Origin: Bdellovibrionia bacterium
Lineage (GTDB): Bacteria > Bdellovibrionota > UBA1018
Direction: 5' to 3'
Assembly: GCA_045805065.1 (NCBI GenBank)
Contig: JBJMMA010000259.1
Span: forward strand, 2,874-66,873
Length of the DNA: 64,000 nucleotides
Shown: positions 5,667 to 55,061 of the stretch, one piece after another
Numbering within the stretch: position 1 is the first letter of the stretch
How the letters are laid out: each line of letters starts with the position of its first letter
Made by a program: the position numbers and the translations under genes
Notes under the pieces: generated by a model
Seen by the model: the letters and a program-made list of their open reading frames with translations, nothing else
Databases searched by the model: none
Told to the model about the DNA's origin: nothing

Positions 5667-5906
5667 TAAGAATTCCCTCAAATCATGCATTAGAGATACA
5701 TTTTGGCGCTACTGAGAGCCGGCCTGGCAAAGAGCAAAGGTTAAGCCATAGCCGCTGTTGTCCGCGCGTGATTAAACCCTCAAAACACTTAGTGCAGTTT
5801 TGCACCCGACTCAAAATCGTGTGTGATGGATTTATGCAGCTGTCAAAATGATGGTCATCAGAATCGCGCGAGTTTTTCAATATAAGCGAATCATTTTCGG
5901 CGCTTG

Positions 5907-8998: not shown

Positions 8999-9940
8999 AT
9001 GAGCGTTGAAAAAACTGCCCTGCCTAAAAACATCCTCGTGAACGTCAACGGAGAGTTCTATAGCGCCGATGATGCCAAAGTTTCGGTCTTTGATCGAAGC
9101 TATATCTATGGCGATAGCCTCTATGAGGTAGCCCGCACCTACGGCGGCTATTTCTTTGAGCTGGATGGCCACCTCAAAAGGCTCGGCAAATCAGCCGAGC
9201 TCTGCCACATGGTTTTAGGGCAAAGCCTGGAGACCTATCATAACGAGATTATGAGGACCCTGGCTGCATGGAAGAAAATGGCCGGCAACCAAAAGCGTGA
9301 AGCTTATTGCCGGATCATCGTCAGCCGGGGCGAAGGCCGAATCGGCTTTGGTCTTCCCTGCCTGACGTCTCCCACGCTCTTTACGATTATCGTTCAAGCG
9401 CTTGAGCCGCCTACGGCCGAGCAGTTTCAAAAGGGCTTTAACTTCCAGGTCTCCAAGCGCTTGAGAAATAACCCAAAGGCTTTGGATCCGGCCATGAAAT
9501 CCGGAAACTACCTCAATAGCCTTCTCGCTTACCTTGAGGCAGCTTCTGAGAACTATGACGATGCCCTGCTTTGCAATGCCGATGGACATGTGACTGAAGG
9601 CACAACCTTCAACATCTTCTACATCCGTCGTGGCATCATCGCGACGCCACCTCTGGATATCGGGATACTGGACGGGATCACCCGCCGCGAAGTCATTCAG
9701 ATGTGCCGTGACTCAGGCATTGAGGTCCGCGAAGTCCGATTCCCTAAAGAGCGCCTTTATGAAGCGGATGAAGTTTTCATGACAAGCTCCATTAAGGAAA
9801 TCTTTCCCGTGACCCGGATTGATGGGCGCAAGATCGGAAACGGAACGCCGGGAAAACTCACTCGCAAGCTGCACAATCAGTTCAACGAGCTGATCGCCGA
9901 ACGCACTCAGCGTGAGAACTCACGCAGGAGCACGACTTGA
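8999..9940 (+). CDS. Fold-type IV PLP aminotransferase (branched-chain or D-amino-acid aminotransferase family)
   Basis: N-terminal 'NGEFYSADDAKVSVFDRSYIYGDSLYE' is typical of class IV aminotransferases. 313 aa. Confidence 0.75.
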   Translation: MSVEKTALPKNILVNVNGEFYSADDAKVSVFDRSYIYGDSLYEVARTYGGYFFELDGHLKRLGKSAELCHMVLGQSLETYHNEIMRTLAAWKKMAGNQKREAYCRIIVSRGEGRIGFGLPCLTSPTLFTIIVQALEPPTAEQFQKGFNFQVSKRLRNNPKALDPAMKSGNYLNSLLAYLEAASENYDDALLCNADGHVTEGTTFNIFYIRRGIIATPPLDIGILDGITRREVIQMCRDSGIEVREVRFPKERLYEADEVFMTSSIKEIFPVTRIDGRKIGNGTPGKLTRKLHNQFNELIAERTQRENSRRSTT

Positions 9941-10797
9941 AAAGCAAACGTAAGCAGCCCCAAAAGTTTCCAAAGAGCCCGCCGTTGAACCAGATTGCAG
10001 CCACAGCGGTGCAAGCTGCTCATGCCGCAGGCGCGGTGCTGGCAAAGCATTACGGAAGAAAGCTCAAGATTCGCGAAAAACTGGGCGCGGGCCTGGTGAC
10101 CAATGCGGATCTTGAGGCCGAGGACGCGGCTCTGCGCATTCTCAAGCGGAAGTTTCCGGACTTCGGGACCCTGACAGAGGAATCCCCTCCTGAGATGCCG
10201 CGTGATCATGGAAGGTGGATCCTGGATCCTCTGGATGGAACGACGAACTTTGTTCACGGCTTTCCGATGTTCTGCGTCTCGCTTGCGGCCGAATGGTCAG
10301 GCCAGCTGGTCGTGGGCGTCGTTTATCATCCGATTTTCAAAGAGACCTATCTTGCCATTAAAGGCAAAGGCGCCAAAGTGAACGGCGTGAAGATGAAGGT
10401 CTCCACCACTTCAAAGATCTCGGACTCGCTTTTGACCACGGGCTTTACCTACCGAAGAAACGAGATCCTTCATCAGGAAATGGAAGCCTTTGAAAGGCTC
10501 AGCGGGATTGCGCGCGCGATCCGCCGCCCGGGAAGCGCGGCCTTGGACCTGGCTTACACCGCTCGCGGCGTTTTTGACGGTTTCTGGGAAAGAAAGCTCT
10601 CCCCGTGGGATATGGCCGCGGGAGCCCTTTTAGTCCAGGAAGCGGGTGGGATTGTCACTGATTTCAAGAGCAATCCGTTTCAGCCTGAGTTTCGCGAGAT
10701 TCTAGCCTCCACTCCGCATCTTCACTCTCAACTTCTTCAGGCGGTGGCGCCAGAATATTGTCAGCTCCCGCCCCCTGGCACTTCGATCTCAGACTAA
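9937..10797 (+). CDS. suhB: Inositol monophosphatase family protein (SuhB-like)
   Basis: 'WILDPLDGTTNFVHGFP' IMPase metal-binding motif. ATGA overlap with the upstream gene. Confidence 0.8.
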   Translation: MKSKRKQPQKFPKSPPLNQIAATAVQAAHAAGAVLAKHYGRKLKIREKLGAGLVTNADLEAEDAALRILKRKFPDFGTLTEESPPEMPRDHGRWILDPLDGTTNFVHGFPMFCVSLAAEWSGQLVVGVVYHPIFKETYLAIKGKGAKVNGVKMKVSTTSKISDSLLTTGFTYRRNEILHQEMEAFERLSGIARAIRRPGSAALDLAYTARGVFDGFWERKLSPWDMAAGALLVQEAGGIVTDFKSNPFQPEFREILASTPHLHSQLLQAVAPEYCQLPPPGTSISD

Positions 10798-10845
10798 CTT
10801 TGACAGGGGCCAAAACCCTCTTTAGACTTTTAAGGTGAGGTTACC

Positions 10846-11946
10846 ATGTCTTCATGGATCTACATCTTATCCAAGTTCACGCCTGAAGCCTTGTTATTTG
10901 AGGCTTTGCTGATTTGCGTTCTGGTCTCAAGCTACGCAGCCTTCTGGGTTTTGCGTAAGCGCAGATTTGGCGCCATTGAAGACGAAGTGCCTGCATCGGT
11001 CGTGAAGGTTTACCTGAACGAGCTGATTGGCGAAGCCGAAGACATGCGCACGCAACTCTTCGGCCTGCTCTCAGGCCACGCTCCGCGCCCACGTCACGCT
11101 CACGCTGATGCTCATATTTCTAGCCCATCCTTTGTTGTCTCGGGCGATGCTGCTGAAAAACTCACGGCATTGGAGCAGAAGATGGCCGAACAAGCCGCCG
11201 CCATGGAACGCATCATGAGCGAGAAAGCCAAGCTTGAAAAAGAGCTCAATGATGCTCGCGCAAATGGCGCGGCAGCAGGCGGTGCCAGTGCGGGTGGCGA
11301 AGACGTTCAAAAACTTCAGGAGAAATGCCAGAGCCTTGAAGCTCGCCTGGCCGAATACAGCGTCATCGAAGATGACCTGGCAAATTTGAAGCGCTTGCAG
11401 CAAGAGAACGCTCAGTTGAAGACTCAGCTGGCAAGCGGTGGCGCAGGCGCCACGGCCGCAGGTCCTGCCGTTCCAGCTACCCCTGCAGCGACTGCTGCTC
11501 CATCTACTCCGGCCGCAGCAGAACCCGAAGCCGCTCCAGCTCCTGCCGAAGCAGCACCTGCTCCTGCAGCAGAAGCAGCGCCAGCAACCCCTGCAGATCC
11601 AGAAGCCGCAGCTGCCGCAGCAGCCGTTGCTGCAGCCACCGCCGCTGACGCACCTAGCTCAACCGTCATGGACCAGGACGCAATCCAGGCCATGCTGGAC
11701 TCTGCCGGCACGGCTCCTTCTACTCCTGCCGCTGCTCCTGCACCAAGCGCCGCGTCCAACGAATTTGAAGGCCTGGTTGACGAAGTGGAAAAGAGCTTGC
11801 AACCGAATGCTCCTGCTCCCGCAGCGGCCGCAACTCCTGCAGCTCCGGCTCAAGCAGAAACCAAAGCTGAAAAAACCCCAGAGAAAGTTCCAGAGAAATC
11901 CGATGAAGACCTCATTGCTGAGTTCGAAAAAATGCTTAACAGCTAA
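10846..11946 (+). CDS. Membrane-anchored coiled-coil protein with an Ala/Pro-rich low-complexity tail
   Basis: N-terminal TM helix 'ALLFEALLICVLVSSYAAFWVL'. A coiled-coil central part precedes about 150 aa of A/P/E-rich repeats. The alternative-frame ORFs at 11424..11759(-) and 11438..(+) are frame artefacts of this repeat. Confidence 0.6.
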   Translation: MSSWIYILSKFTPEALLFEALLICVLVSSYAAFWVLRKRRFGAIEDEVPASVVKVYLNELIGEAEDMRTQLFGLLSGHAPRPRHAHADAHISSPSFVVSGDAAEKLTALEQKMAEQAAAMERIMSEKAKLEKELNDARANGAAAGGASAGGEDVQKLQEKCQSLEARLAEYSVIEDDLANLKRLQQENAQLKTQLASGGAGATAAGPAVPATPAATAAPSTPAAAEPEAAPAPAEAAPAPAAEAAPATPADPEAAAAAAAVAAATAADAPSSTVMDQDAIQAMLDSAGTAPSTPAAAPAPSAASNEFEGLVDEVEKSLQPNAPAPAAAATPAAPAQAETKAEKTPEKVPEKSDEDLIAEFEKMLNS

Positions 11947-12727
11947 GGCCGTTGCAGTCCTGCTCGCACTGTCCTCTTTTTCGTCGATTTCGACTTTTGC
12001 TGCCAACACTTACATCGCGCCTTCCCAGGCGACATTGGTTCAGGACATCAACACCAACCCCGATGTCGATTTCGAAGCGCTTCTTCAGCGCTGGACGAAT
12101 CAATACGGAAGCCTCGCCAGTCAGCCCCTGCTTTCCATTGCGAAAGACAAACGCAACTCCGATCGTCAGCGCTACATTGCAGTGATGGGTGCAGCAAAGC
12201 TTGGCGGACCCGCCGTTGCTGAAAAGCTTGTTCCCCTTCTCAAGGACAAAGTCTGGTTGATCCGTAGCGCCACTCTCAGAGCATTGGCAGCGCTCAAAGA
12301 TCCTGCAACTGCTCAGGCGGTTTTGCCTCTATTGAAAGACCCAGCTCTTGTGGTTCGCGTTGAAGCTGTCGAAACCGTAAAAGTCCTCAAGCCTGAAGGG
12401 GGCGCTCAAGCCCTGATCTCGGTTCTCCAAAGCCAGGACAACTATCGTTTTGGAAAAGCCCAATGGGTTCCACAACGCGCTCTTTCAGCGCTTGTGGTTC
12501 TTCATGACTTCTCGGTCGTGCCTTACCTTCGCCCGCTTCTGGACCATCAGAAGGATCCAGAGCTTCAACGCCAGACGATTTTTGCCCTTCAGATGCTGAC
12601 CGGAATCGACAAAGACTCCAAGCTTGCGCTCAACGCGCAGGTCGAGACCTGGAAGAAAATCCTGGCAGGCGACCGCACCCCGGTCGTCACCAGCTCAGCG
12701 CACAGCGAACCTAAGCCTATTCATTGA
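11903..12727 (+). CDS. Secreted HEAT-repeat (PBS-lyase-like) protein
   Basis: The ATG at 11903 gives the signal peptide 'MKTSLLSSKKCLTAKAVAVLLALSSFSSISTFA'. Repeated 'LLKDKVWLIRSATLRALAALKDP' and 'LLKDPALVVRVEAVETV' HEAT-like units follow. The 5' part of the listed 429-aa ORF is the wrong frame of the upstream A/P-rich repeat. Confidence 0.55.
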   Translation: MKTSLLSSKKCLTAKAVAVLLALSSFSSISTFAANTYIAPSQATLVQDINTNPDVDFEALLQRWTNQYGSLASQPLLSIAKDKRNSDRQRYIAVMGAAKLGGPAVAEKLVPLLKDKVWLIRSATLRALAALKDPATAQAVLPLLKDPALVVRVEAVETVKVLKPEGGAQALISVLQSQDNYRFGKAQWVPQRALSALVVLHDFSVVPYLRPLLDHQKDPELQRQTIFALQMLTGIDKDSKLALNAQVETWKKILAGDRTPVVTSSAHSEPKPIH

Positions 12728-30625: not shown

Positions 30626-32566
30626 TTGCAATCACAGGGGGCACGTATGAGATTTCATTCTTTTTTGATGGCTGTAGCACTTTTAGGCGCACAGACCGCG
30701 TTTGGGGACGTCTGCAGCAAAGTATCCGAGAACCAGGTCGCACAATTGACCTGTCCTGCGGGTCAAACTATTACGAACATTGGTTTTGCGAGTTACGGGA
30801 CCCCCTCCGGCGCATGCGGCAGCTATAGTGTCAGCAGTTGCAACTCCAGCACCTCCAAGAGCGTCGTGCAATCGGCGTGTGTAGGCAAAGCGTCTTGCCA
30901 AGTCAGTGCTTCGAATTCCTTGTTTGGCGATCCTTGCAGTGGCATCACGAAATCTCTTGCCATTCAAGCCGTATGTTCGGCTCCTTCAACCTCAAACGCC
31001 TGCACGAGTGTGGCCGAAAGTCAGTCCGCGGCACTCACTTGTCCATCAGGAAAGGTCATTTCAAGCATTACCTTTGCGAGTTACGGGACCCCAACTGGCT
31101 CGTGCGGCAGCTTTGCAGTGAGCAGCTGTAACGCAAGCACCTCGAAGAGCGTTGTGCAATCGGCATGTGTAGGCAAAGCATCCTGCCAACTCAGCGCTTC
31201 AAATTCCTTGTTTGGCGACCCTTGCAGTGGCGTAGGCAAAAGGCTTTCTGTCCAGGCAGTTTGTTCTTCAGTGGTTCCAAAACCAAGCCCTAGTCCAAGT
31301 CCGACTGTGACTCCAAAGCCTACTCCGACGCCTACTCCATCGCCTACGCCGACTGCGACTCCGCTTCCAGCCGTGGGCTCAAATGTCGTCGTACCTAGCG
31401 CGATCGCTATCCCAGCCTCGACGCTTGCCTTGCCAAGTGGCATCGCCAACGGATCATCTGCTTCAAGCCCAACCGTTGTCAGTCTGCAATGCGGACAAGT
31501 TTATCGGGGAACGCTTGATCTCAGCTACAAATCCTACATCTCCGTGAAAGTCGCAGGTACCTGTGGCAAGCCGACCATCATTCCTGCATCCAATTCACAA
31601 GTCGGGATTAATGCTGTTGGCGCAAACACCATCAAGATCAGCGGCATCAAAATCCAGGGCGCATCTCAAGGGATCAACGTGAACAATGCGAAAACCATCA
31701 GCATTGATAACGTGGATATCTTGAACAGCTCCAACGCCGGGATTTTTTGCAGCGGTGTGAATGGCATGACTGTTTCGAACAGCAGTATCAGTAACAGCGG
31801 CGTCACGGGTGTCGACAGCCTGGGCGCGGTCAGCAACGCGACGATCACTAACACGACGGTTTATAATACCAGCAAAGGTAGCGGCGGCGCAGGTGGCGTC
31901 GGCATCTACTTCTATAACGGTACTAACAACCGGATCGATCACGTATCTGTCAGCAACTCTGCTTATCACGGAATTGTCTCTCTTGAGACAACCAATTCCT
32001 ATGTGACGAACAGCATAGCTCAAAATAGCTGCACAGGTCCTGATAAGGATTGTGGCGCAATCTACACGGCACAGAAAGCCACGCCACATGCCGGTCTTAA
32101 TCTGATCATCGACAACAACAAAGTGGTCACCAGTGGAGGCAGCGGCATCTACCTCGATGACTATGCCAATGGCGTGACCGTCTCATACAACGACGTCTCC
32201 GGATGTTCAGACGGGATGATATTGCACAATGGATACAACAACAATATCCATCACAATAAGATCGCCAACAGCGCGGTTGCTCACGTCACCATGGGCCAGG
32301 ACACTGGAACCATGCACGACAACGTGTTCACGTATAACGCGATGAACTCCACTCATGGCGAATACGGTTACCGACTTGAAACCGGAACCAACCTGAGCAC
32401 CTTTGCCCGGTATGACAACAACACCTACCAGAGCACCAATGTGAGCCACTTTGGCCGCCTCTGGCAGGGTGGCTCGAGCCCTGGCATCGACGCCAGCTAC
32501 AGCGCCTGGAAATCAACCTACATGCCAGGTCAGGATGCTCACTCAACGATGAACGGTGCCCAATAA
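30626..32566 (+). CDS. Secreted protein with two tandem SUEL-type (galactoside/rhamnose-binding) lectin domains, a Pro/Thr/Ser linker and a right-handed parallel beta-helix domain
   Basis: Signal peptide. A ~115-aa repeat occurs twice with 'ASYGTP.G.CGS..VSSCN.S.SKSVVQSACVGKASCQ.SASNSLFGDPCSG', matching the SUEL/Gal_Lectin cysteine pattern. Linker 'PKPSPSPSPTVTPKPTPTPTPSPTPTATP'. C-terminal 'NSS/NSG/NTT' repeat rungs are typical of pectin-lyase-fold beta-helices. Confidence 0.75.
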   Translation: MQSQGARMRFHSFLMAVALLGAQTAFGDVCSKVSENQVAQLTCPAGQTITNIGFASYGTPSGACGSYSVSSCNSSTSKSVVQSACVGKASCQVSASNSLFGDPCSGITKSLAIQAVCSAPSTSNACTSVAESQSAALTCPSGKVISSITFASYGTPTGSCGSFAVSSCNASTSKSVVQSACVGKASCQLSASNSLFGDPCSGVGKRLSVQAVCSSVVPKPSPSPSPTVTPKPTPTPTPSPTPTATPLPAVGSNVVVPSAIAIPASTLALPSGIANGSSASSPTVVSLQCGQVYRGTLDLSYKSYISVKVAGTCGKPTIIPASNSQVGINAVGANTIKISGIKIQGASQGINVNNAKTISIDNVDILNSSNAGIFCSGVNGMTVSNSSISNSGVTGVDSLGAVSNATITNTTVYNTSKGSGGAGGVGIYFYNGTNNRIDHVSVSNSAYHGIVSLETTNSYVTNSIAQNSCTGPDKDCGAIYTAQKATPHAGLNLIIDNNKVVTSGGSGIYLDDYANGVTVSYNDVSGCSDGMILHNGYNNNIHHNKIANSAVAHVTMGQDTGTMHDNVFTYNAMNSTHGEYGYRLETGTNLSTFARYDNNTYQSTNVSHFGRLWQGGSSPGIDASYSAWKSTYMPGQDAHSTMNGAQ

Positions 32567-32701: not shown

Positions 32702-32968
32702 TCAGCCGCGTTTTCGGACCAGCTTTTCGTAGGGCGGCAAGTTAATTTGCTCTTTAAGGGCTTCCTGATAGGCTTCTTCCAAGTGCCACGAGGTCTTTTC
32801 ATAGGAGAAAAGGAGCTCACAAAGACCGGCAGTATCCTCCGCATCAGGAGAAGCCTCGTCGAGCTCCTTTTTAAGCACGTCGATCATGTGATCGACAGCT
32901 TGGATAATCATGACCAAGTCATTTCCTCTAATCATCGGCATTGAAGTTCCTTTCTTCACCCGTCCCAA
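32702..32968 (-). CDS. Hypothetical small charged protein
   Basis: An 88-aa ORF with a helical, charged composition. No homology recognised. Confidence 0.3.
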   Translation of the reverse strand: MGRVKKGTSMPMIRGNDLVMIIQAVDHMIDVLKKELDEASPDAEDTAGLCELLFSYEKTSWHLEEAYQEALKEQINLPPYEKLVRKRG

Positions 32969-46756: not shown

Positions 46757-48130
46757 TTAATTCATTGGCGGAGGATTCGACAAGAACTCAGTCATTGTCG
46801 CACCTTGATCCTTGTTCGGCACGATTAAGGTGGCCGTACGCCAGTTCGGCGTCGCCAGGAGATAACGACCGTTACCTAAGCCCGGCGCATAACCCAGACT
46901 CCACCCCGTGGTAGGGGTAGGATAATAATCAGCCCCTGTGTCGATCACGTACTTGGCGACGCTGCGATCATCTGGCTTGGACGAATCAGCAACGACAAGC
47001 CTCGTATCCACAGCCACGAAAACCGCTCTTACGTCCGCAGGATTTGGAATCCCTTTGCCCCCGCTCGAGGAGGAGCTGCCGTAGCCGTGCTCGAAGTAAG
47101 GATAGGCAGGGCGAAAGGAAACGCCACCGTCGGATTCTACTTTTCGGTCAGGCGTGCCCGCGCTGGCGAATGGGTACTTCCACAGGCCAGTGTCCGGAGC
47201 CGTGACTTGGTTCCATTGCGACCACTTGCGCGTCGAATTGGAGAGAATGTAAACTCTAAGATTTTTGATTTCTACACGCGTGTTGGTCGCGGCGTTTCCT
47301 TGAGCCTCGTACAGCGTGTACCATGCGAGCAATCCGCTACACCAGGTAGGACGCTCCCCCGTCCACCAAGATGGGATTGAGCTTCCGGCTGGTGAGTACT
47401 GCGTGATCACAGGATTGTACTGCCAGTCGAACGAAGGATTGATCACCAGCGCCTCGCTTGGAGACGACATGTCTTTCACCACTTGGTCGATTGTCAGCCC
47501 AGTTGAGGAAGTCGACGAAGGCGTTGGACTTGGCTTTACAGTCGGTGTCGGACTTGGACTTGGCTTCGGAGTCACAGTTGGACTCGGGCTCGGAATTGGC
47601 GCGGCTCCACTTGCAAAGCTCCATTTCTGATTGGCACCGGCGCCGCAATCATAGAGAATCACCGGCGTTCCATTTGCGGAATTATTTGCGGCGACATCCA
47701 TGCAGCGTCCACTCGATGCACTCACAAGCCTTCCGTTCGAGAGTGACCATTTTTGAGTTACTGAATTGTTGCAGGTCTTGGAGACGATGGGATTCAAGTT
47801 GGCGCCAGTGCCCTTGATGTCCAGGCAAAGATTGCCAGCACCAGCAAAGCTCTTCAGCTGTCCTGAGGAGTTCAGAACGAAAGACTGATTGCTTCCGCCG
47901 TTACAACTCCAGATCTCAAGCGCCGCGCCAGAAGCAGTGCTGTTAGCAGTGACATCTAAGCATATATTGGTTCCAAGGCTGCTCTTCACTGCCCCTGATG
48001 CTACGGTCGTGACTGCCGCAGCTTTGGCTGGATGGGCGGAGGCGATCAATGCAAGAGCAAGTCCTCCCGACCAGGGCGCAACTCGCTTTAAAAATGCTCT
48101 ACTCTTAATCGCTCTACAGGTTTTCATTTC
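46757..48130 (-). CDS. Secreted ricin-B (beta-trefoil) lectin domain protein with a Pro/Thr/Ser linker and an unknown C-terminal domain
   Basis: Signal peptide from the internal Met 48130. QxW repeats 'NQSFVL', 'TQKWSL', 'NQKWSF' lie around 'CLD' motifs. Linker 'PSPSPTVTPKPSPSPTPTVKPSPTPSS'. The ORF extends to 48178. Confidence 0.7.
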   Translation of the reverse strand, partial: EMKTCRAIKSRAFLKRVAPWSGGLALALIASAHPAKAAAVTTVASGAVKSSLGTNICLDVTANSTASGAALEIWSCNGGSNQSFVLNSSGQLKSFAGAGNLCLDIKGTGANLNPIVSKTCNNSVTQKWSLSNGRLVSASSGRCMDVAANNSANGTPVILYDCGAGANQKWSFASGAAPIPSPSPTVTPKPSPSPTPTVKPSPTPSSTSSTGLTIDQVVKDMSSPSEALVINPSFDWQYNPVITQYSPAGSSIPSWWTGERPTWCSGLLAWYTLYEAQGNAATNTRVEIKNLRVYILSNSTRKWSQWNQVTAPDTGLWKYPFASAGTPDRKVESDGGVSFRPAYPYFEHGYGSSSSSGGKGIPNPADVRAVFVAVDTRLVVADSSKPDDRSVAKYVIDTGADYYPTPTTGWSLGYAPGLGNGRYLLATPNWRTATLIVPNKDQGATMTEFLSNPPPMN

Positions 48131-48440
48131 ATTCCCCCGACAGGAACTGTCTATTCCGTTCCTTATTATCGCACCCAAGCTACAGTAATATCAGCTGTGT
48201 CTCTATCGACCAGTCTCGAAGACGCATAAATTCGCTGAACTTTCGCGAATTAAAGTCAATCTGTATACGCACATAGGCAATGAAATGTTTTGCATCAAAT
48301 CGAGCACCCTCTCCTTGCTCAATAGACGTTGTATAACCGATATCGGACCCCAATCTGACGAGGCCTCGGTGCCTTGCTGGGCCGCTCGCCCCCTTTTCAT
48401 CGCATGATTACCCCCTTGCATCGTGTGGTAGAATAGACGC

Positions 48441-49082
48441 ATGCATACGCAACTTGATCTGCAAGATTTCAAAACGTCTCATCCAGTAACAACTCTTTTC
48501 AGACGCACGCTCATTACCGGAGCAAGTGTCAGCGCCGATTTTTGCGCACCTAGCCCTGGCAAGCGGCTAGGCTGGAAATACGGCGGAAAAGACAGCGTTG
48601 TGACATTGGCTCGGGGAGGTACGCCGGGCCGTGAAACCATTCGACGATTGACTCACGATGACATCGCGGATCGGACAATCGTGATTGCCATCGATTTCTT
48701 CTTCTGGGATTCGACCTCCCATTTGCTCGATGCAAGCCTCACCGCTCTTCAAGACCTCATTGAGTTGTGCAGAAAGCCGGGAGTTCCGCTAATCTTGGGC
48801 GACATTCCGCATCTTCTTCCAGGAATGCAGCCGGGTCGTGCCAAACTAAACGCTGCGATCCACGCAGCAGCCAAGGCATCCAGTCATTGCTCTGTCATGG
48901 AACTCGATGAGCTTCACCGACAAGTGCTTTGTGAGGGAATCGAATTCGGAGGGCGCCGGTATCGACTGACTGATCTTGCGCCCGATGGTTTGCACTTAGC
49001 TGAGGTGGCAGGAAATTATGTAGCTGAACGGCTTTTGGCTACAGTAACCAGGGATTTCACAAAGCTTGCACAACTGGGATAA
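48441..49082 (+). CDS. SGNH/GDSL-like hydrolase
   Basis: Block V-like 'PDGLHLAEVAGNYVAERL' (DxxH) and an N-terminal 'ITGASVSADF' variant of block I. Confidence 0.45.
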   Translation: MHTQLDLQDFKTSHPVTTLFRRTLITGASVSADFCAPSPGKRLGWKYGGKDSVVTLARGGTPGRETIRRLTHDDIADRTIVIAIDFFFWDSTSHLLDASLTALQDLIELCRKPGVPLILGDIPHLLPGMQPGRAKLNAAIHAAAKASSHCSVMELDELHRQVLCEGIEFGGRRYRLTDLAPDGLHLAEVAGNYVAERLLATVTRDFTKLAQLG

Positions 49083-49102: not shown

Positions 49103-51004
49103 CTATTGGGTTGAGCCACCTTGTAAAAAGAGCGACTGAAGGCGATTCATCAGCTGAGGGTTATCGATGCCACCGGGCCGGCTCACGCAGCTCTTTATCT
49201 TGTCACGATTGGAAATCTCAGCTTTGATCAAATCACAAGTCTTTTGCCTTTCTCTTGTACTGAGGGGCAACGATAAGCTCATTAATGCCTCTATCCTGAC
49301 CTCGGGCTCATCTTTCGTTTTCTCCACTAAGCATTCAAATTGCGTCTCCCCTAATTCAGGACCGGCAGTTTGGATCTGACTTGAGATCTTTGAAACAGAG
49401 CACGGCCCTTCTAACAGGTTTATCGCTTTTTCCTGAGGATCGTTTTCGACTGCGTCTTTTCTAAGGCGACTCAACATTAGCCAGGTGTTCTTGCGTAGCA
49501 CTGGCCTGCACACCGCTGGGTCTGGTTCTCTCATACATCGCTTGAAGGAAATGCCAGCCACCCATTCCAGCTTAGATTTTTGGATCTCACTCAACGGCCT
49601 TTTGAGATCCTTAATCTCATCCTGTCGATATCGAATCAATGTTTCAATGTTCGATTTGTATCCATAGTCTTTGGGTCGAGTTAATTCGCCGAACCAAGAT
49701 ACCAAGTCTTCATTGCTCCGTGCGTGGCGTATCTTTTTGATCTCAGCATTTAAATTCTCAATTTGCGTATTTATTTCCGTCGGAGTCAGGGCATGAATGG
49801 CGGCGATGACTTCACTCTTTGACTTTTCCAACGCTTCGTCCATCAATTTTTCAACACGTTTTACATTTTCATCATTACAACCTACGAAAGATTCGATTGT
49901 CCTCAGATATCGACTCTGGGAATCCAGCTCTGAACGAGCGTACTCAAATACTGCAAAATGGGTCGCCTTAGTTGCAAGGCTTAACACGTCGGGCGCTTGA
50001 GAAACGAAAGCATTGCAGGGCGAGACAATCTCGTTTCGCTCTGGAGGTCCCAGACAATAGTCGGCCAAGGTCAGATCGAAAGAGCTTTGAGGCAGAATGA
50101 GATATTGCTTAGCTCGCTCCGAGTTGTAAACCGACGACTTCATGACATCGAATAAAGCCAGTGTTCCCTCTTGGTAATGCTTTCTCGCGTTCGAATGCGC
50201 ATCGAGAAAAGACATCCCTTTTTCTAATTCCTTATTGAGATACAGAAGGTAGGAATTTGAATGATTGAGTTGAAGACACTCGGGACGATTATCGCAATTT
50301 TTCTGCTCAATTGCAGACGGAACACCTTTGTAGGCTTCAGGATCGGAAGGCTTTTCATAGTGAATCGAGACTAAACCAACCTGACTTCCAGAGGTTGAGC
50401 TGAACACCTGCACACCTGGAATGTCGGATACTGCGCGTATGGCATTTCCGCCAAAGCACGACAGCGTATTCAAATTAACACGGCCGTTGGGATTCTTCGT
50501 TTTATACTCGAGCAAAGACTTCCGAAGATCGCCTAGTCCAAAAAATTCCACATTTTCAGTAGAAGGAACGAATGCATAAGCAAATCGTACCGGTCCGTTC
50601 ACTTCTTCATTGTCTGTTAACTGGCTCGATAATTCGTCCTGTCGCAGGTAGCTTCTTGGAAAACGACCAGGATCTCCCTCAAGGGGCGATGATTTATCCG
50701 CTTGGTAAACTGTCCCATGAGAATAAATGTGAATGTCCAGTCGATCCACGCCGACTTGATCCGCGATCAACTTCCGCAGTTTCTCCGCGTTATCTCCAGG
50801 CGAGGCCCTGAACTGGATGACCTCATAGCCTTTCTTATAATAGCTCATGGAAGTGAGGTACGCAGAGTGGGCAAAATTCGATTTTAAGTTTCGGTCGTCG
50901 CCCCCATCGACGACAATGGCGACTTTTCGCCCCGCCGTCGCATATTGCGGAAAGCTTACTGTCAAAGCTGTTAAAGCGAGAACAAAAGACCGTAAGCGGT
51001 TCAT
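49103..51004 (-). CDS. Secreted protein with an N-terminal caspase-like (clan CD cysteine peptidase) domain and a large helical C-terminal region
   Basis: Signal peptide. 'KVAIVVDGGDD', a His-Gly dyad 'HIYSHGT' and a candidate catalytic Cys 'LNTLSCFGGNA', in the order seen in caspase/legumain/clostripain-type folds. Confidence 0.5.
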   Translation of the reverse strand: MNRLRSFVLALTALTVSFPQYATAGRKVAIVVDGGDDRNLKSNFAHSAYLTSMSYYKKGYEVIQFRASPGDNAEKLRKLIADQVGVDRLDIHIYSHGTVYQADKSSPLEGDPGRFPRSYLRQDELSSQLTDNEEVNGPVRFAYAFVPSTENVEFFGLGDLRKSLLEYKTKNPNGRVNLNTLSCFGGNAIRAVSDIPGVQVFSSTSGSQVGLVSIHYEKPSDPEAYKGVPSAIEQKNCDNRPECLQLNHSNSYLLYLNKELEKGMSFLDAHSNARKHYQEGTLALFDVMKSSVYNSERAKQYLILPQSSFDLTLADYCLGPPERNEIVSPCNAFVSQAPDVLSLATKATHFAVFEYARSELDSQSRYLRTIESFVGCNDENVKRVEKLMDEALEKSKSEVIAAIHALTPTEINTQIENLNAEIKKIRHARSNEDLVSWFGELTRPKDYGYKSNIETLIRYRQDEIKDLKRPLSEIQKSKLEWVAGISFKRCMREPDPAVCRPVLRKNTWLMLSRLRKDAVENDPQEKAINLLEGPCSVSKISSQIQTAGPELGETQFECLVEKTKDEPEVRIEALMSLSLPLSTRERQKTCDLIKAEISNRDKIKSCVSRPGGIDNPQLMNRLQSLFLQGGSTQ

Positions 51005-51784: not shown

Positions 51785-53041
51785 ATGGCGCCATCCGTAA
51801 AGCAGGACGAAAAACTCCACTCTCACATAGAAGATCTCCGCGGGACAAGCCGACTTGCCATTGAAGCAACTCAAGGCGTTTGTGATCTTATTGAAGCCAT
51901 GCATGAGACGGTCGCTAAGGGGCCCTACTTGTTAGGAAATCCACTTCAACGCCCAACGCGTACGATCAATCAAATGGTTTACGGAAGCATCCGTTGCGTA
52001 ACAAACCTTGTAGGAGCAAGTATCGATGGTGTCCTCGGAAGACTCACACGGCTTATCGGTCCGGGTCATAGAGTCTCCCGCTCCTCTCAGGAAGATGCCG
52101 TACTTGCAGTGCTCAATGGAGTCCTGGGCGACTATCTGCAGGAGACCGGTAATCCTCTAGCCATCCCGATGCAGCTACGGCACACCGGCGCTCCTCTTGT
52201 GCTCGAGCCAAAGGCGTTGCATGCGGCATTACCGAAGGCAGGCCCCAAACTCCTCCTTTTGGTCCATGGCTCGTGCCTGAGTGACCGACAATGGTCTCGA
52301 CAAGGGCATGATCACGGGGCGGAGCTCGCGCGCGACTTGGGATACACGCCGATATATCTGCACTACAACACCGGCCTCCACATTTCGACTAACGGTCGCA
52401 CGCTCGCCACACTCCTTGATCAGCTTGTCACAGCGTGGCCTGTGCCCCTGGAAGAAATCGCCATTTTATCCCACAGCATGGGAGGGCTCGTGGCTCGTAG
52501 CGCTTGTCACATTGCAGAGGAGCAAAACTATCTCTGGCGAAGGAAGTTACGCGTGGCGATCTTTCTTGGGACACCTCACCAGGGAGCACCGCTTGAGCGT
52601 GTGGGCAACTGGATCGACCATCTCTTAGTCATCAACCGTTACAGTGCCCCTTTCGCGCGGCTTGGTAAAATCCGCAGCGCCGGCGTAACTGACATGCGCC
52701 ATGGCAACGTGTTGGACGAACACTGGCAAGGCCGCGACCGCTTTGCTCATGGCCGCGACACCCGTACACCTTTGCCACTACCAACGAATATTTCCTGCTA
52801 CACGATCGCCGCAACAAAGGGCCCCAAAGGAACGGGAAAGCTACGAAGCGACGGCATTGTCCCCGTGAACAGCGCACTTGGCATGCATAAGTTGGCAAAG
52901 CATAGCCTTGTCTTCCCAGAAACACACCAATGGATCGCCTACGGAACAAGCCATCTCGATCTGCTCAACCGCCACGAAGTCTATACAACGGTCCGGAAAT
53001 GGCTCGAAGCACCCAAGCCAGCAAGCCTACCCAGTGGATGA
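51785..53041 (+). CDS. Alpha/beta hydrolase, lipase-like (PGAP1/EstA-like)
   Basis: 'LLLLVHGS' and nucleophile elbow 'ILSHSMGGLVAR'. Confidence 0.55.
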   Translation: MAPSVKQDEKLHSHIEDLRGTSRLAIEATQGVCDLIEAMHETVAKGPYLLGNPLQRPTRTINQMVYGSIRCVTNLVGASIDGVLGRLTRLIGPGHRVSRSSQEDAVLAVLNGVLGDYLQETGNPLAIPMQLRHTGAPLVLEPKALHAALPKAGPKLLLLVHGSCLSDRQWSRQGHDHGAELARDLGYTPIYLHYNTGLHISTNGRTLATLLDQLVTAWPVPLEEIAILSHSMGGLVARSACHIAEEQNYLWRRKLRVAIFLGTPHQGAPLERVGNWIDHLLVINRYSAPFARLGKIRSAGVTDMRHGNVLDEHWQGRDRFAHGRDTRTPLPLPTNISCYTIAATKGPKGTGKLRSDGIVPVNSALGMHKLAKHSLVFPETHQWIAYGTSHLDLLNRHEVYTTVRKWLEAPKPASLPSG

Positions 53042-53858: not shown

Positions 53859-55061
53859 TTGAACGTCATGAATGGGCGCGCTTTAATGGATTGGTCCAAA
53901 GTTTTAGTTTTTTCATCGCTACTTTTGTCAAACAACGCTCTGTCTGGAGAATGCTTTCGCCAAGTGCCAACCTTCGGTTTTAGCAATTTCAATGATCTTG
54001 CCAATAGCATCGGCGATGCAAAAAGTGAGTTGACCTCCTTTCTACCGGACAAAAAGCTGAGCCGTGATCAGATCGACAGGTTGGCCGCCGAAGCTTCTGA
54101 CGTTGTATACAACCTGTTCAAAACTGCGGGTGACAACCCCGCCAATTCATCACGTATTTTTCCAAACGACGCGATCGTGCCAGTGGATCATTTTACTTCA
54201 GCAGCTGCGCTTGTGGGTGCTCCCATGGGTTATCGAATCGCCGCGAGCTGGAACGATAATGCTCAAAACGAAGCCAAGCGAGGCGTTTTTACCGCGCTTT
54301 ATGAGCCCAATACTTATGGTCAGCCAGTGATATTCGCCTTTAAAGGAACAGTGACACGTGACGATTGGAAAGAAGACCTCTTCCATCAAGGCGGAACTCA
54401 GCTGCAATCGGTTTTTCGAATGCTGAGCCCACGCAATTCGGCCGGCGCGACCGTCTACAAAAGTCTGCTAAAACGCCTGGAGAGTGGGCAAGACGTTTTG
54501 ATCACTGGACATAGTCTGGGCGGTGGCCTTGCTCAAGCCACTGCTTACTTGTTGCAAAAAGATCTCGACGACTATCGCCGTCACGAAATCGCCCAAGGAA
54601 GAGAGCCAAAACCGGGTAATCTTCATCTTGTGACTTTTAACGCACTCGGTGGTCAGCGGACGCTGAAGGTATTTGCTAAGGCCTTCCCTAAAGATCGAGA
54701 GATCACCCCGATCCTCTATAAGGGTACCCGCCTCGAATCCAGTCCAATCGACTCTCAAATCGACGACGCGGCAGTGCTCTCTCTTCAGCCGCGTAACTAT
54801 GCTTATCCAGGCGATCCAGTATCTCCACTTTTCGATCACATTGGTCCAAAATTGATCGTCTCGAAAAAGGAGCCAAAGCGAAAAGTAACGGGCATTGCCG
54901 AAGCATCCGCCCACATGTATACCGCGCTCGGTCGGTTAAGACTTGCAGGAGGGTTTGCGCCAAGCGTTCTGAACTCAATTCACGACAAAGTCTCAGAAGC
55001 CGTCTACGACCATAGCATCAAGCTCATTCGCACGGCGATCGACTCTGATTTCAGACCTTAA
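53859..55061 (+). CDS. Secreted class 3 lipase family protein
   Basis: Signal peptide. 'LITGHSLGGGLAQA' matches the Lipase_3 nucleophile motif GHSLGG. Confidence 0.75.
   Translation: MNVMNGRALMDWSKVLVFSSLLLSNNALSGECFRQVPTFGFSNFNDLANSIGDAKSELTSFLPDKKLSRDQIDRLAAEASDVVYNLFKTAGDNPANSSRIFPNDAIVPVDHFTSAAALVGAPMGYRIAASWNDNAQNEAKRGVFTALYEPNTYGQPVIFAFKGTVTRDDWKEDLFHQGGTQLQSVFRMLSPRNSAGATVYKSLLKRLESGQDVLITGHSLGGGLAQATAYLLQKDLDDYRRHEIAQGREPKPGNLHLVTFNALGGQRTLKVFAKAFPKDREITPILYKGTRLESSPIDSQIDDAAVLSLQPRNYAYPGDPVSPLFDHIGPKLIVSKKEPKRKVTGIAEASAHMYTALGRLRLAGGFAPSVLNSIHDKVSEAVYDHSIKLIRTAIDSDFRP

Follow-up and report, generated by a model that had tools for sequence, protein, structure and literature searches.

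Two genes in a 64,000-nucleotide stretch of a Bdellovibrionia metagenome-assembled genome (MAG) encode secreted proteins in which a lectin part, a Pro/Thr/Ser-rich linker, and a C-terminal effector domain follow one another, which raises the question of what these proteins bind, what they do to it, and whether their parts have been exchanged between genes. The whole stretch (positions 2,874 to 66,873 of the 69,659-bp contig JBJMMA010000259.1, assembly GCA_045805065.1) is referred to here as the window. Protein 1 carries two SUEL lectin domains followed by a right-handed parallel beta-helix, and protein 2 carries a ricin-B lectin followed by a 248-aa domain that has no annotation. The explanation that we favor, with a probability of roughly 0.6, is that both are secreted, lectin-targeted depolymerases of exopolysaccharide (EPS) or capsule, for which we infer both the catalysis and the substrate. 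The design itself is of the textbook kind, and its value lies in what it points to.

Architecture of the Two Proteins

Protein 1 is encoded on the plus strand of the window by an open reading frame (ORF) at 30626..32566, and protein 2 on the minus strand by an ORF at 46757..48178; both ORFs are real. According to NCBI, protein 1 starts at the ATG at 30647, which is likely its true start, and is 639 aa long (MFL5815885.1 by exact look-up, where it is named 'right-handed parallel beta-helix repeat-containing protein' and nothing more). Protein 2 starts at the ATG at 48127 on the minus strand and has 456 aa (MFL5815899.1, likewise by exact look-up, 'RICIN domain-containing protein'). A first-pass annotation of the window had given protein 2 the bounds 46757..48130, the latter being 3 nt away from the NCBI start.

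Judged by eye, each protein begins with a typical Sec signal peptide, comprising a basic N-region, a hydrophobic core, and a small-x-small end. In protein 1 it is MRFHSFLMAVALLGAQTAFG (30647..30706, plus strand), which ends in A-F-G with cleavage predicted before DV, and in protein 2 it is MKTCRAIKSRAFLKRVAPWSGGLALALIASAHPAKA (48020..48127, minus strand). The modular secreted design proposed in the first-pass annotation, with both lectin folds and the beta-helix, was borne out by Pfam, NCBIfam, and PDB sequence searches. The two proteins had also been described as members of one family of secreted proteins. They have no homologous globular domain in common, so that 'family' holds only in the sense of a common architecture. 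Such an architecture, in which a linker connects a binding module with a glycan enzyme, is an ordinary plan, and both proteins are already in GenBank under generic names. Literature searches on Bdellovibrio lectins, ricin, and depolymerases and on PDB 9RX2 yielded nothing relevant.

Lectin Modules and Their Likely Ligands

The SUEL domains of protein 1 (PF02140; 30707..30976 and 30995..31264, plus strand), each of 90 aa with 8 Cys, in keeping with a family norm of about 95 residues and eight Cys in four disulphides, had been recognized from the sequence and were confirmed by Pfam (SUEL_Lectin twice, E 6.7e-41, 139 bits against a cutoff of 31.4). In a PDB sequence search, this region matched the sea-urchin L-rhamnose-binding lectin 5h4s (E 3e-37) and, further, the lectin domain of a plant beta-galactosidase (5iaz), fish CSL3, and the RBL domains of latrophilin. 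The two domains, which had been called near-identical, agree in only 65 of 90 residues (72%) and in about 69-73% of their DNA, and the pair reflects an old duplication. Nor are SUEL domains as uncommon in bacteria as had been supposed; a search returned 523 matches, in many of which SUEL is attached to a glycoside hydrolase or metalloprotease from Myxococcota or Bdellovibrionota, and the domain is not rare in environmental bacteria.

In a nuclear magnetic resonance study of the latrophilin RBL domain, Glu42, Tyr63, Gly117, and Lys120 were found to hold the sugar, and even E42D or K120R abolished binding (PMC2430599). According to HMMER alignments, the equivalents of these residues are kept in both SUEL domains of the window, within the motifs SEN, SYG, and CSGITK of domain 1 and AES, SYG, and CSGVGK of domain 2, which align to CEG, YGR, and C(R/P)G(V/T)YK of solved lectins. 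Since the sugar-site residues are kept in both domains, the SUEL modules look competent for ligands of the rhamnose/galactose (Rha/Gal) type.

The ricin-B domain of protein 2 (47621..47998, minus strand) is a CBM13-type beta-trefoil lectin (PF00652, PF14200), and the Pfam search confirmed its assignment (Ricin_B_lectin, E 9.4e-25, 87.7 bits against a cutoff of 29, with RicinB_lectin_2 also matching). Its three Q-x-W/F motifs lie at residues 81, 125, and 167 of the 456 aa, and it matches the CBM13 modules of Streptomyces xylanase (1knl), an alpha-galactosidase, and an arabinofuranosidase at E 1e-18 to 1e-21, the best being 2.5e-21.

Taken alone, SUEL domain 2 finds a further match in RemA, a gliding adhesin of Flavobacterium that has a SUEL domain as well (8gl6_D, E 2.8e-16). 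RemA is among the best PDB matches of SUEL domain 2 and could serve as the model for a different account, in which both proteins would be non-catalytic adhesins or agglutinins, the beta-helix and the 248-aa domain would be further binding or scaffold domains, and the cell, or secreted aggregates, would stick to glycan surfaces. We consider this account unlikely. Against it, neither sequence has an element that would anchor it to the cell, there being no lipobox, sorting signal, type IX secretion system (T9SS) C-terminal domain, or transmembrane segment in the two proteins.

Beta-Helix Domain of Protein 1

The C-terminal part of protein 1 (31370..32566, plus strand; 398 aa plus stop codon) is a right-handed parallel beta-helix, as had been proposed (Pfam Beta_helix, E 1.6e-16, together with NosD-type repeats), and probably a polysaccharide depolymerase. 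It belongs to a small subfamily of 35 proteins in a word-indexed search, the alignment of which gave an AlphaFold2 model with a predicted local distance difference test score (pLDDT) of 94.7. The strongest fold matches are enzymes. Among the matches are GH87 alpha-1,3-glucanase (33.7), AlgE4 epimerase (33.4), PL6 lyases, GH110 galactosidases, phage tailspikes, and the Vibrio biofilm lyase RbmB (28.8), all at just 12-17% identity. That the strongest matches are enzymes argues against the adhesin account, as does an array of polar residues that is invariant in the family alignment and recurs on successive turns of the helix (YHG, DCGAIYT, YLDD, and HN), an arrangement that would fit an active-site groove. 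With a single-sequence query, no PDB sequence match was found over the beta-helix region. In a PDB profile search, the domain matched only 9rx2, a 'parallel beta-helix repeat protein' (E 1e-4), GH87 (0.011), and GH110 (0.03).

Several specific identities were considered and rejected. A NosD identity is contradicted by the TIGR04247 score of 27 bits against a cutoff of 300 and by the lack of nosZ, nosF, and nosY neighbors, and the NosD-like score reflects generic beta-helix (CASH) repeats. Mannuronan C5-epimerases of the AlgG/AlgE kind have DPHD as their catalytic motif, which is missing from this beta-helix. A phage tailspike depolymerase was likewise rejected, with no tblastn match in 50,697 phage genomes, no PHROG match, and a chromosomal housekeeping context.

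In a scan of one genome per species, 70 loci with this beta-helix were found, mostly in Oxalobacteraceae and Burkholderiaceae (Massilia, Janthinobacterium, and Herminiimonas) and a few in Myxococcota and Bdellovibrio; the best match to the gene of protein 1 among GTDB species representatives is 57% identical. The copies of Janthinobacterium and of a related metagenome contig (P0217 and P0214) are flanked by genes for Wzc/Wzz, a Wzx flippase, Wzy, GT2/GT4 glycosyltransferases, and a polysaccharide deacetylase. When such neighbors were used as tblastn probes, linkage with deacetylase, GT4, and Acetyltransf_6 genes was seen at about 40 of the 70 loci, all of the Burkholderiales type, and at none of the Bdellovibrio or Myxococcota loci. 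Among the copies found, SUEL domains stand on this beta-helix only in Bdellovibrio and Myxococcota (for example, in the Polyangiaceae locus L008), and a Janthinobacterium copy bears a different, Cys-containing module instead of SUEL.

These loci bear on another possibility, that the enzymes process the EPS of their own cell, for a biofilm, cyst, or surface layer, which is presumably what their Oxalobacteraceae homologs do, and take no part in attack on other cells. Homologs of both effector domains do lie inside EPS biosynthesis clusters, and the view covers 64 kb of the genome, so that an EPS cluster could lie elsewhere. Nevertheless, the window, the orthologous contig L001 described below, and the other Bdellovibrio and Myxococcota loci have no link to a glycosyltransferase, Wzx/Wzy, or export gene, and SUEL modules were seen on the beta-helices of Bdellovibrio and Myxococcota alone and not on the EPS-cluster copies of Burkholderiales. 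We therefore regard a purely self-directed role as distinctly improbable.

A further observation on the EPS clusters of Oxalobacteraceae is that a second, longer beta-helix paralog (664-718 aa) precedes the beta-helix gene (L075, 5144..7138; L076, 5717..7873). It resembles the Bdellovibrio proteins to the same degree as the first copy does, and with this adjoining paralog, the EPS cluster holds a tandem pair of such enzymes.

The 248-Residue Domain of Protein 2

The first-pass annotation had left the domain after the ricin-B lectin without a name, and in this it was right. The last 248 aa of protein 2 (46757..47503, minus strand, including the stop codon), which consist mainly of beta strands and are probably glycan-active, match nothing in Pfam (even at E 10), NCBIfam, or PHROGs, have no PDB sequence match with either a single sequence or a profile, and have no PDB fold match. 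The domain is strongly conserved, with 73 close homologs at 45-83% identity, most of which stand alone, have about 270 aa, and begin with a signal peptide, for instance in Massilia and Noviherbaspirillum. The cultivable Bdellovibrio sp. HCB288 encodes an ortholog that combines ricin with this domain (WP_413581864). When 1.84 billion cluster representatives were searched in full with an HMMER profile, the domain was found in 1197 clusters at E <=1e-3 and 202 at <=1e-30.

Several of the homologs are located in or beside polysaccharide loci. A Massilia homolog (P0139) belongs to an XrtB/PEP-CTERM EPS locus in which EpsD, EpsL, and WcaJ score above the NCBIfam cutoffs and which has Wzz, Poly_export, GT4, and Wzx genes as well. 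Another (P0133) is flanked on one side by Wzx and glycosyltransferase genes and on the opposite side by genes for a UDP-sugar dehydrogenase and an epimerase, and a third (P0132) adjoins GT4 and ricin-galactose-oxidase genes. The presence of stand-alone homologs of about 270 aa inside EPS biosynthesis clusters, a typical place of polymer-processing enzymes, again counts against the adhesin account.

The fusion partners, by contrast, are among the points in favor of that account. In 55 multidomain members, the 248-aa domain occurs together with ricin-B, carbohydrate-binding modules (CBM6, CBM35, CBM4_9, and CBM60), malectin, WSC, GDSL esterase, GH16, GH3, and T9SS sorting domains. In the members inspected for this, GH16, GH3, and GDSL are domains apart from the 248-aa domain, which is thus attached to bona fide catalytic domains in the way a carbohydrate-binding module (CBM) would be.

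A link to phages was also detected. In a Foldseek comparison with predicted viral structures (BFVD), the domain significantly matched portions of three tail proteins of metagenomic phages (E 1.8e-12, 1.7e-8, and 1e-5; TM about 0.65 for the first two). In an IMG/VR provirus (L084), a homolog with 30% identity makes up the C-terminal half of a protein of 512 aa, the gene of which has a baseplate gene (phrog_1369) on one side and a tail-fibre gene (phrog_327) on the other. Pure receptor-binding domains are common at the tips of phage proteins from the baseplate region, and this position, too, would suit an adhesin. A phage origin of the effector domains themselves was rejected: tblastn of both domains against GenBank phages gave nothing, nor did PHROGs, and only the BFVD folds and the one provirus locus tie the 248-aa domain to phages.

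All of this context concerns cell-surface polysaccharide, which the domain may cut or may only bind. A bolder proposal is that the 248-aa domain is a new catalytic family that cleaves EPS or capsule, with a beta-rich fold absent from the PDB, common to EPS producers, which have it in XrtB/PEP-CTERM and Wzx/Wzy clusters, to predators, which have it joined to lectins, and to phages, which have it on baseplate proteins, and that the combinatorial lectin kit of this genome (SUEL-SUEL, SUEL-ricin, and ricin) retargets several depolymerases to prey matrices. We put this forward tentatively, as a possibility with the odds somewhat against it.

Exchange of Lectin Modules among Paralogs

That domains have been shuffled was suggested in the first-pass annotation from the likeness of the linker DNA. 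The suggestion stands on other grounds than those, namely on two paralogs, on one orthologous locus, and on the relatives of the C-terminal domain of protein 2, which bear ricin at either end.

The first paralog, P0010 (MFL5814061.1, locus tag ACJ763_10835), is from the same MAG as the window, because its locus-tag prefix is that of the window genes ACJ763_20195 and ACJ763_20200, and the accession numbering agrees. Its likeness to protein 1 runs from the signal peptide through both SUEL domains into the first part of the linker, at 76.6% identity over 239 aa; the C-terminal part of P0010 is a 340-aa domain that is not related to the beta-helix and has no Pfam or PDB match. The second paralog, P0080 (MFL5813920.1), falls within the same accession block as P0010 and the window MAG and consists of one SUEL domain, a ricin module 71% identical to that of protein 2, a linker, and a C-terminal domain akin to that of P0010.

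A syntenic ortholog of protein 1 is found on a metagenome contig (L001), in the gene order trpS, ortholog, HNH gene, and alkD. Its beta-helix is 90% identical to that of protein 1, but it has just one SUEL domain. This single SUEL is 73% identical to domain 1 of protein 1, as against 83% between the first domains of protein 1 and P0010 and 79% between their second domains. The lectin cassette of protein 1 is thus nearer to that of a paralog in its own genome than to that of its ortholog, the pattern expected from cassette replacement or gene conversion. Lectin module shuffling is well supported by these comparisons of protein sequences, and the cassettes have been recombined among at least four proteins of this genome.

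Some further observations concern the same cassettes. The C-terminal domains of P0010 (about residues 245-582) and P0080 (about 300-607), both encoded outside the window, are related to each other at about 33% identity. Neither has a Pfam match, and that of P0010 has no PDB sequence match; they form a second uncharacterized effector domain on the same lectin cassettes. In several distant Bdellovibrio relatives, the second SUEL domain is replaced by an unannotated Cys-containing module of about 55 aa with the pattern W-x-x-C-A-x-E...C-x-F-S-G...V-R-Y-G-A-N-G...C-x-N...F-G-x-D-P...G-x-x-K-x-C-E, which has no Pfam annotation. The module is seen in L005 (about 5680..5850), P0003 (residues 122-176), P0004 (two copies), and P0006, and it precedes the beta-helix in Janthinobacterium and in a Myxococcales MAG (two copies in L009 and one in L012). 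It probably represents a further small module for carbohydrate binding. The JGI gene call for the L001 ortholog (P0001, 362 aa, starting with GTG, 10001..11089) is truncated. The frame is open to an ATG at 9440, and the full ORF (9440..11089, 549 aa) includes a signal peptide, one SUEL domain, and a Pro/Ser linker, so that database entries of this family can hide a lectin module.

Linkers

In all six frames of the window, the linkers of protein 1 (31265..31369, plus strand) and protein 2 (47504..47602, minus strand) are the only Pro/Thr/Ser-rich stretches. Their longest common run is the 11-residue peptide PSPSPTVTPKP, encoded at 31289..31321 on the plus strand and at 47593..47561 on the minus strand. 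The pair of 20-mers on which the claim of nucleotide-level likeness had been based was located at 31301-31320 (plus) and 47581-47562 (minus). The 20-mers are real and differ at 2 of 20 positions, and matches with at most 3 mismatches number 2 in the window against 0.02 expected from shuffles. Their likeness is fully due to the common peptide, and as evidence of exchange, it falls away.

When the DNA encoding the peptide is aligned, 27 of 33 nt are identical, and all 6 differences are synonymous third positions. The Pro codons differ in 6 of 6 cases, and 5 of 11 codons are identical, where the linkers' own codon usage predicts 4.4 +/- 1.6. With nothing but synonymous differences and no more identical codons than chance would give, the linker DNA adds nothing to what the peptide says and gives no hint that the two linkers recently exchanged DNA.

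The peptide itself exceeds what composition would give (P 5e-5 with full shuffles; 1.5e-3 with the Pro positions fixed). When 1640 pairs of real linkers from related proteins were compared, a single pair had a match as long and with as many residue types, and TVTPKP is found in no other of the 222 related proteins. The nearest other linkers are all from Bdellovibrionia, namely PSPSPSPTVT in P0080, PTPTVSPSP (twice) in P0187, and SPSPSPSPTVSP in the L001 ortholog. We read the likeness as a lineage-specific 'dialect' and not as proof of linker exchange between genes.

The chances are about even that it is a by-product of low-complexity sequence and of a habit of composition in the lineage, saying nothing about a shared gene origin. 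The synonymous sites, which match no more often than codon usage predicts, agree with such a by-product, as do the best unconstrained DNA alignment, which is out of register with the peptide match, the SPSPTV(T/S)-like runs of the other Bdellovibrionia linkers, and the linker of the L001 ortholog, which has strongly diverged although the flanking domains are 82-90% identical. The rarity of an identical 11-residue run with five residue types speaks for the opposite side, together with the confinement of TVTPKP to the two window proteins among these relatives.

Genomic Neighborhood

The neighbors of protein 1 are trpS, a Tsi2-like ORF, and alkD, and the surroundings in both the window and L001 are of the housekeeping kind (mutS, mutY, xerC/D-like, an M50 protease, trpS, alkD, and scpAB). 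By exact look-ups, the MutS, TrpS, AlkD-like, and SRPBCC proteins of the window are MFL5815878 to MFL5815897. Just downstream of protein 1 lies the ORF of 88 aa (32702..32968, minus strand) with a match to T6SS_Tsi2-like immunity proteins (Pfam, E 1.2e-7, 32.4 bits against 27), whose exact sequence is absent from the protein collection searched. The same slot in L001 is occupied by the gene for a 338-aa HNH endonuclease (11553..12569). With a Tsi2-like gene in one and an HNH gene in the other, the slot between the protein 1 gene and alkD is a variable site with genes of the toxin/immunity type.

Protein 2 is adjoined by genes for proteins of 213 aa (48441..49082, plus strand) and 633 aa (49103..51004, minus strand), ACJ763_20195 and ACJ763_20200, which have no Pfam match and are singletons in the protein collection. 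Farther along are a PGAP1-like alpha/beta hydrolase (51785..53041) and a class 3 lipase (53859..55061), and the surroundings of protein 2 may be a small neighborhood of secreted hydrolases.

Proposed Mode of Action

If both proteins are lectin-targeted depolymerases, the tandem SUEL lectins of protein 1, of the Gal/Rha type and with their site residues intact, would tether a beta-helix depolymerase, either lyase or hydrolase, to its substrate, and the ricin-B/CBM13 lectin of protein 2 would tether the 248-aa domain likewise. The lectin-free relatives of both effector domains in the EPS clusters of Oxalobacteraceae presumably trim or release polymer. In Bdellovibrionia and Myxococcota, the same domains are stand-alone secreted genes that gained SUEL or ricin modules, and these lectin-bearing forms may bind and cut the EPS, capsule, or biofilm matrix of other bacteria. 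Lectin cassettes are swapped among paralogs within the same genome. Use against prey matrices is plausible in view of the taxonomy and of the absence of EPS genes nearby, and the link to exopolysaccharide makes it plausible that prey glycans are recognized, as the first-pass annotation had suggested.

Several points weigh against this explanation. By sequence, neither effector domain falls into a CAZy family, and the beta-helix fits none of PL6, PL9, GH28, GH87, and GH110 and no phage K1-type lyase. Catalytic residues could be assigned in neither effector domain, as would be expected of adhesins, and the fusion of the 248-aa domain to catalytic GH16, GH3, or GDSL domains in some proteins is as compatible with a binding module as with a further catalytic domain. 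One homolog of this domain (P0140) is located outside any EPS cluster and adjoins a 650-aa ricin protein. Neither gene has glycan-related neighbors in the window, and the predatory behavior of this MAG is assumed from taxonomy alone.

Significance

The 248-aa family, with at least 1197 sequence clusters and neither annotation nor a solved fold, is, with good reason, a candidate for a CAZy family or a CBM of its own, because four lines of context (EPS clusters, CBM fusions, lectin fusions in predators, and the phage baseplate position) point to cell-surface polysaccharide. The distribution of both effector domains suggests that Bdellovibrio-like and myxobacterial predators took enzymes that process EPS, such as the producers of EPS have, and equipped them with lectins. 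If true, this would give them a means of breaching the prey capsule and biofilm matrix, which would be of interest to anti-biofilm work. The window and its paralogs also offer a clean within-genome example of lectin cassettes moved between paralogs.

Comparison with Known Systems

The SUEL domains of the window have the FASYG, GDPC, and K-x-L motifs of known SUEL/RBL lectins (SUL-I 5h4s, CSL3 2zx0, latrophilin 2jx9, 5iaz, and RemA 8gl6) and are of the 'FASYGTPxGxCG' subtype, closest to the plant beta-galactosidase (BGAL) and RemA domains. Unlike those lectins, they serve as the N-terminal targeting module of a secreted bacterial beta-helix protein; their first Cys has moved from the position just before the sugar-site Glu, and the structural Arg of the 'YGR' motif is replaced by Thr. 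Protein 2 resembles the CBM13 enzymes (Streptomyces xylanase 10A 1knl, alpha-galactosidase 3a21, and arabinofuranosidase 3wmy) in being secreted and in its order of beta-trefoil lectin, flexible linker, and glycan-active domain, but its partner domain is not a known glycoside hydrolase and has no match by Pfam, PDB sequence, or PDB fold. With regard to the beta-helix depolymerases and lyases, such as the Klebsiella phage K1 lyase (7w1c), K64-1 S2-4 (9k4a), RbmB (9ozd), PL6, GH87, and AlgE4/AlgG, protein 1 differs in having no particle-binding or trimerization domain and in carrying at its N-terminus lectin-type modules that are not seen in any of these enzymes.

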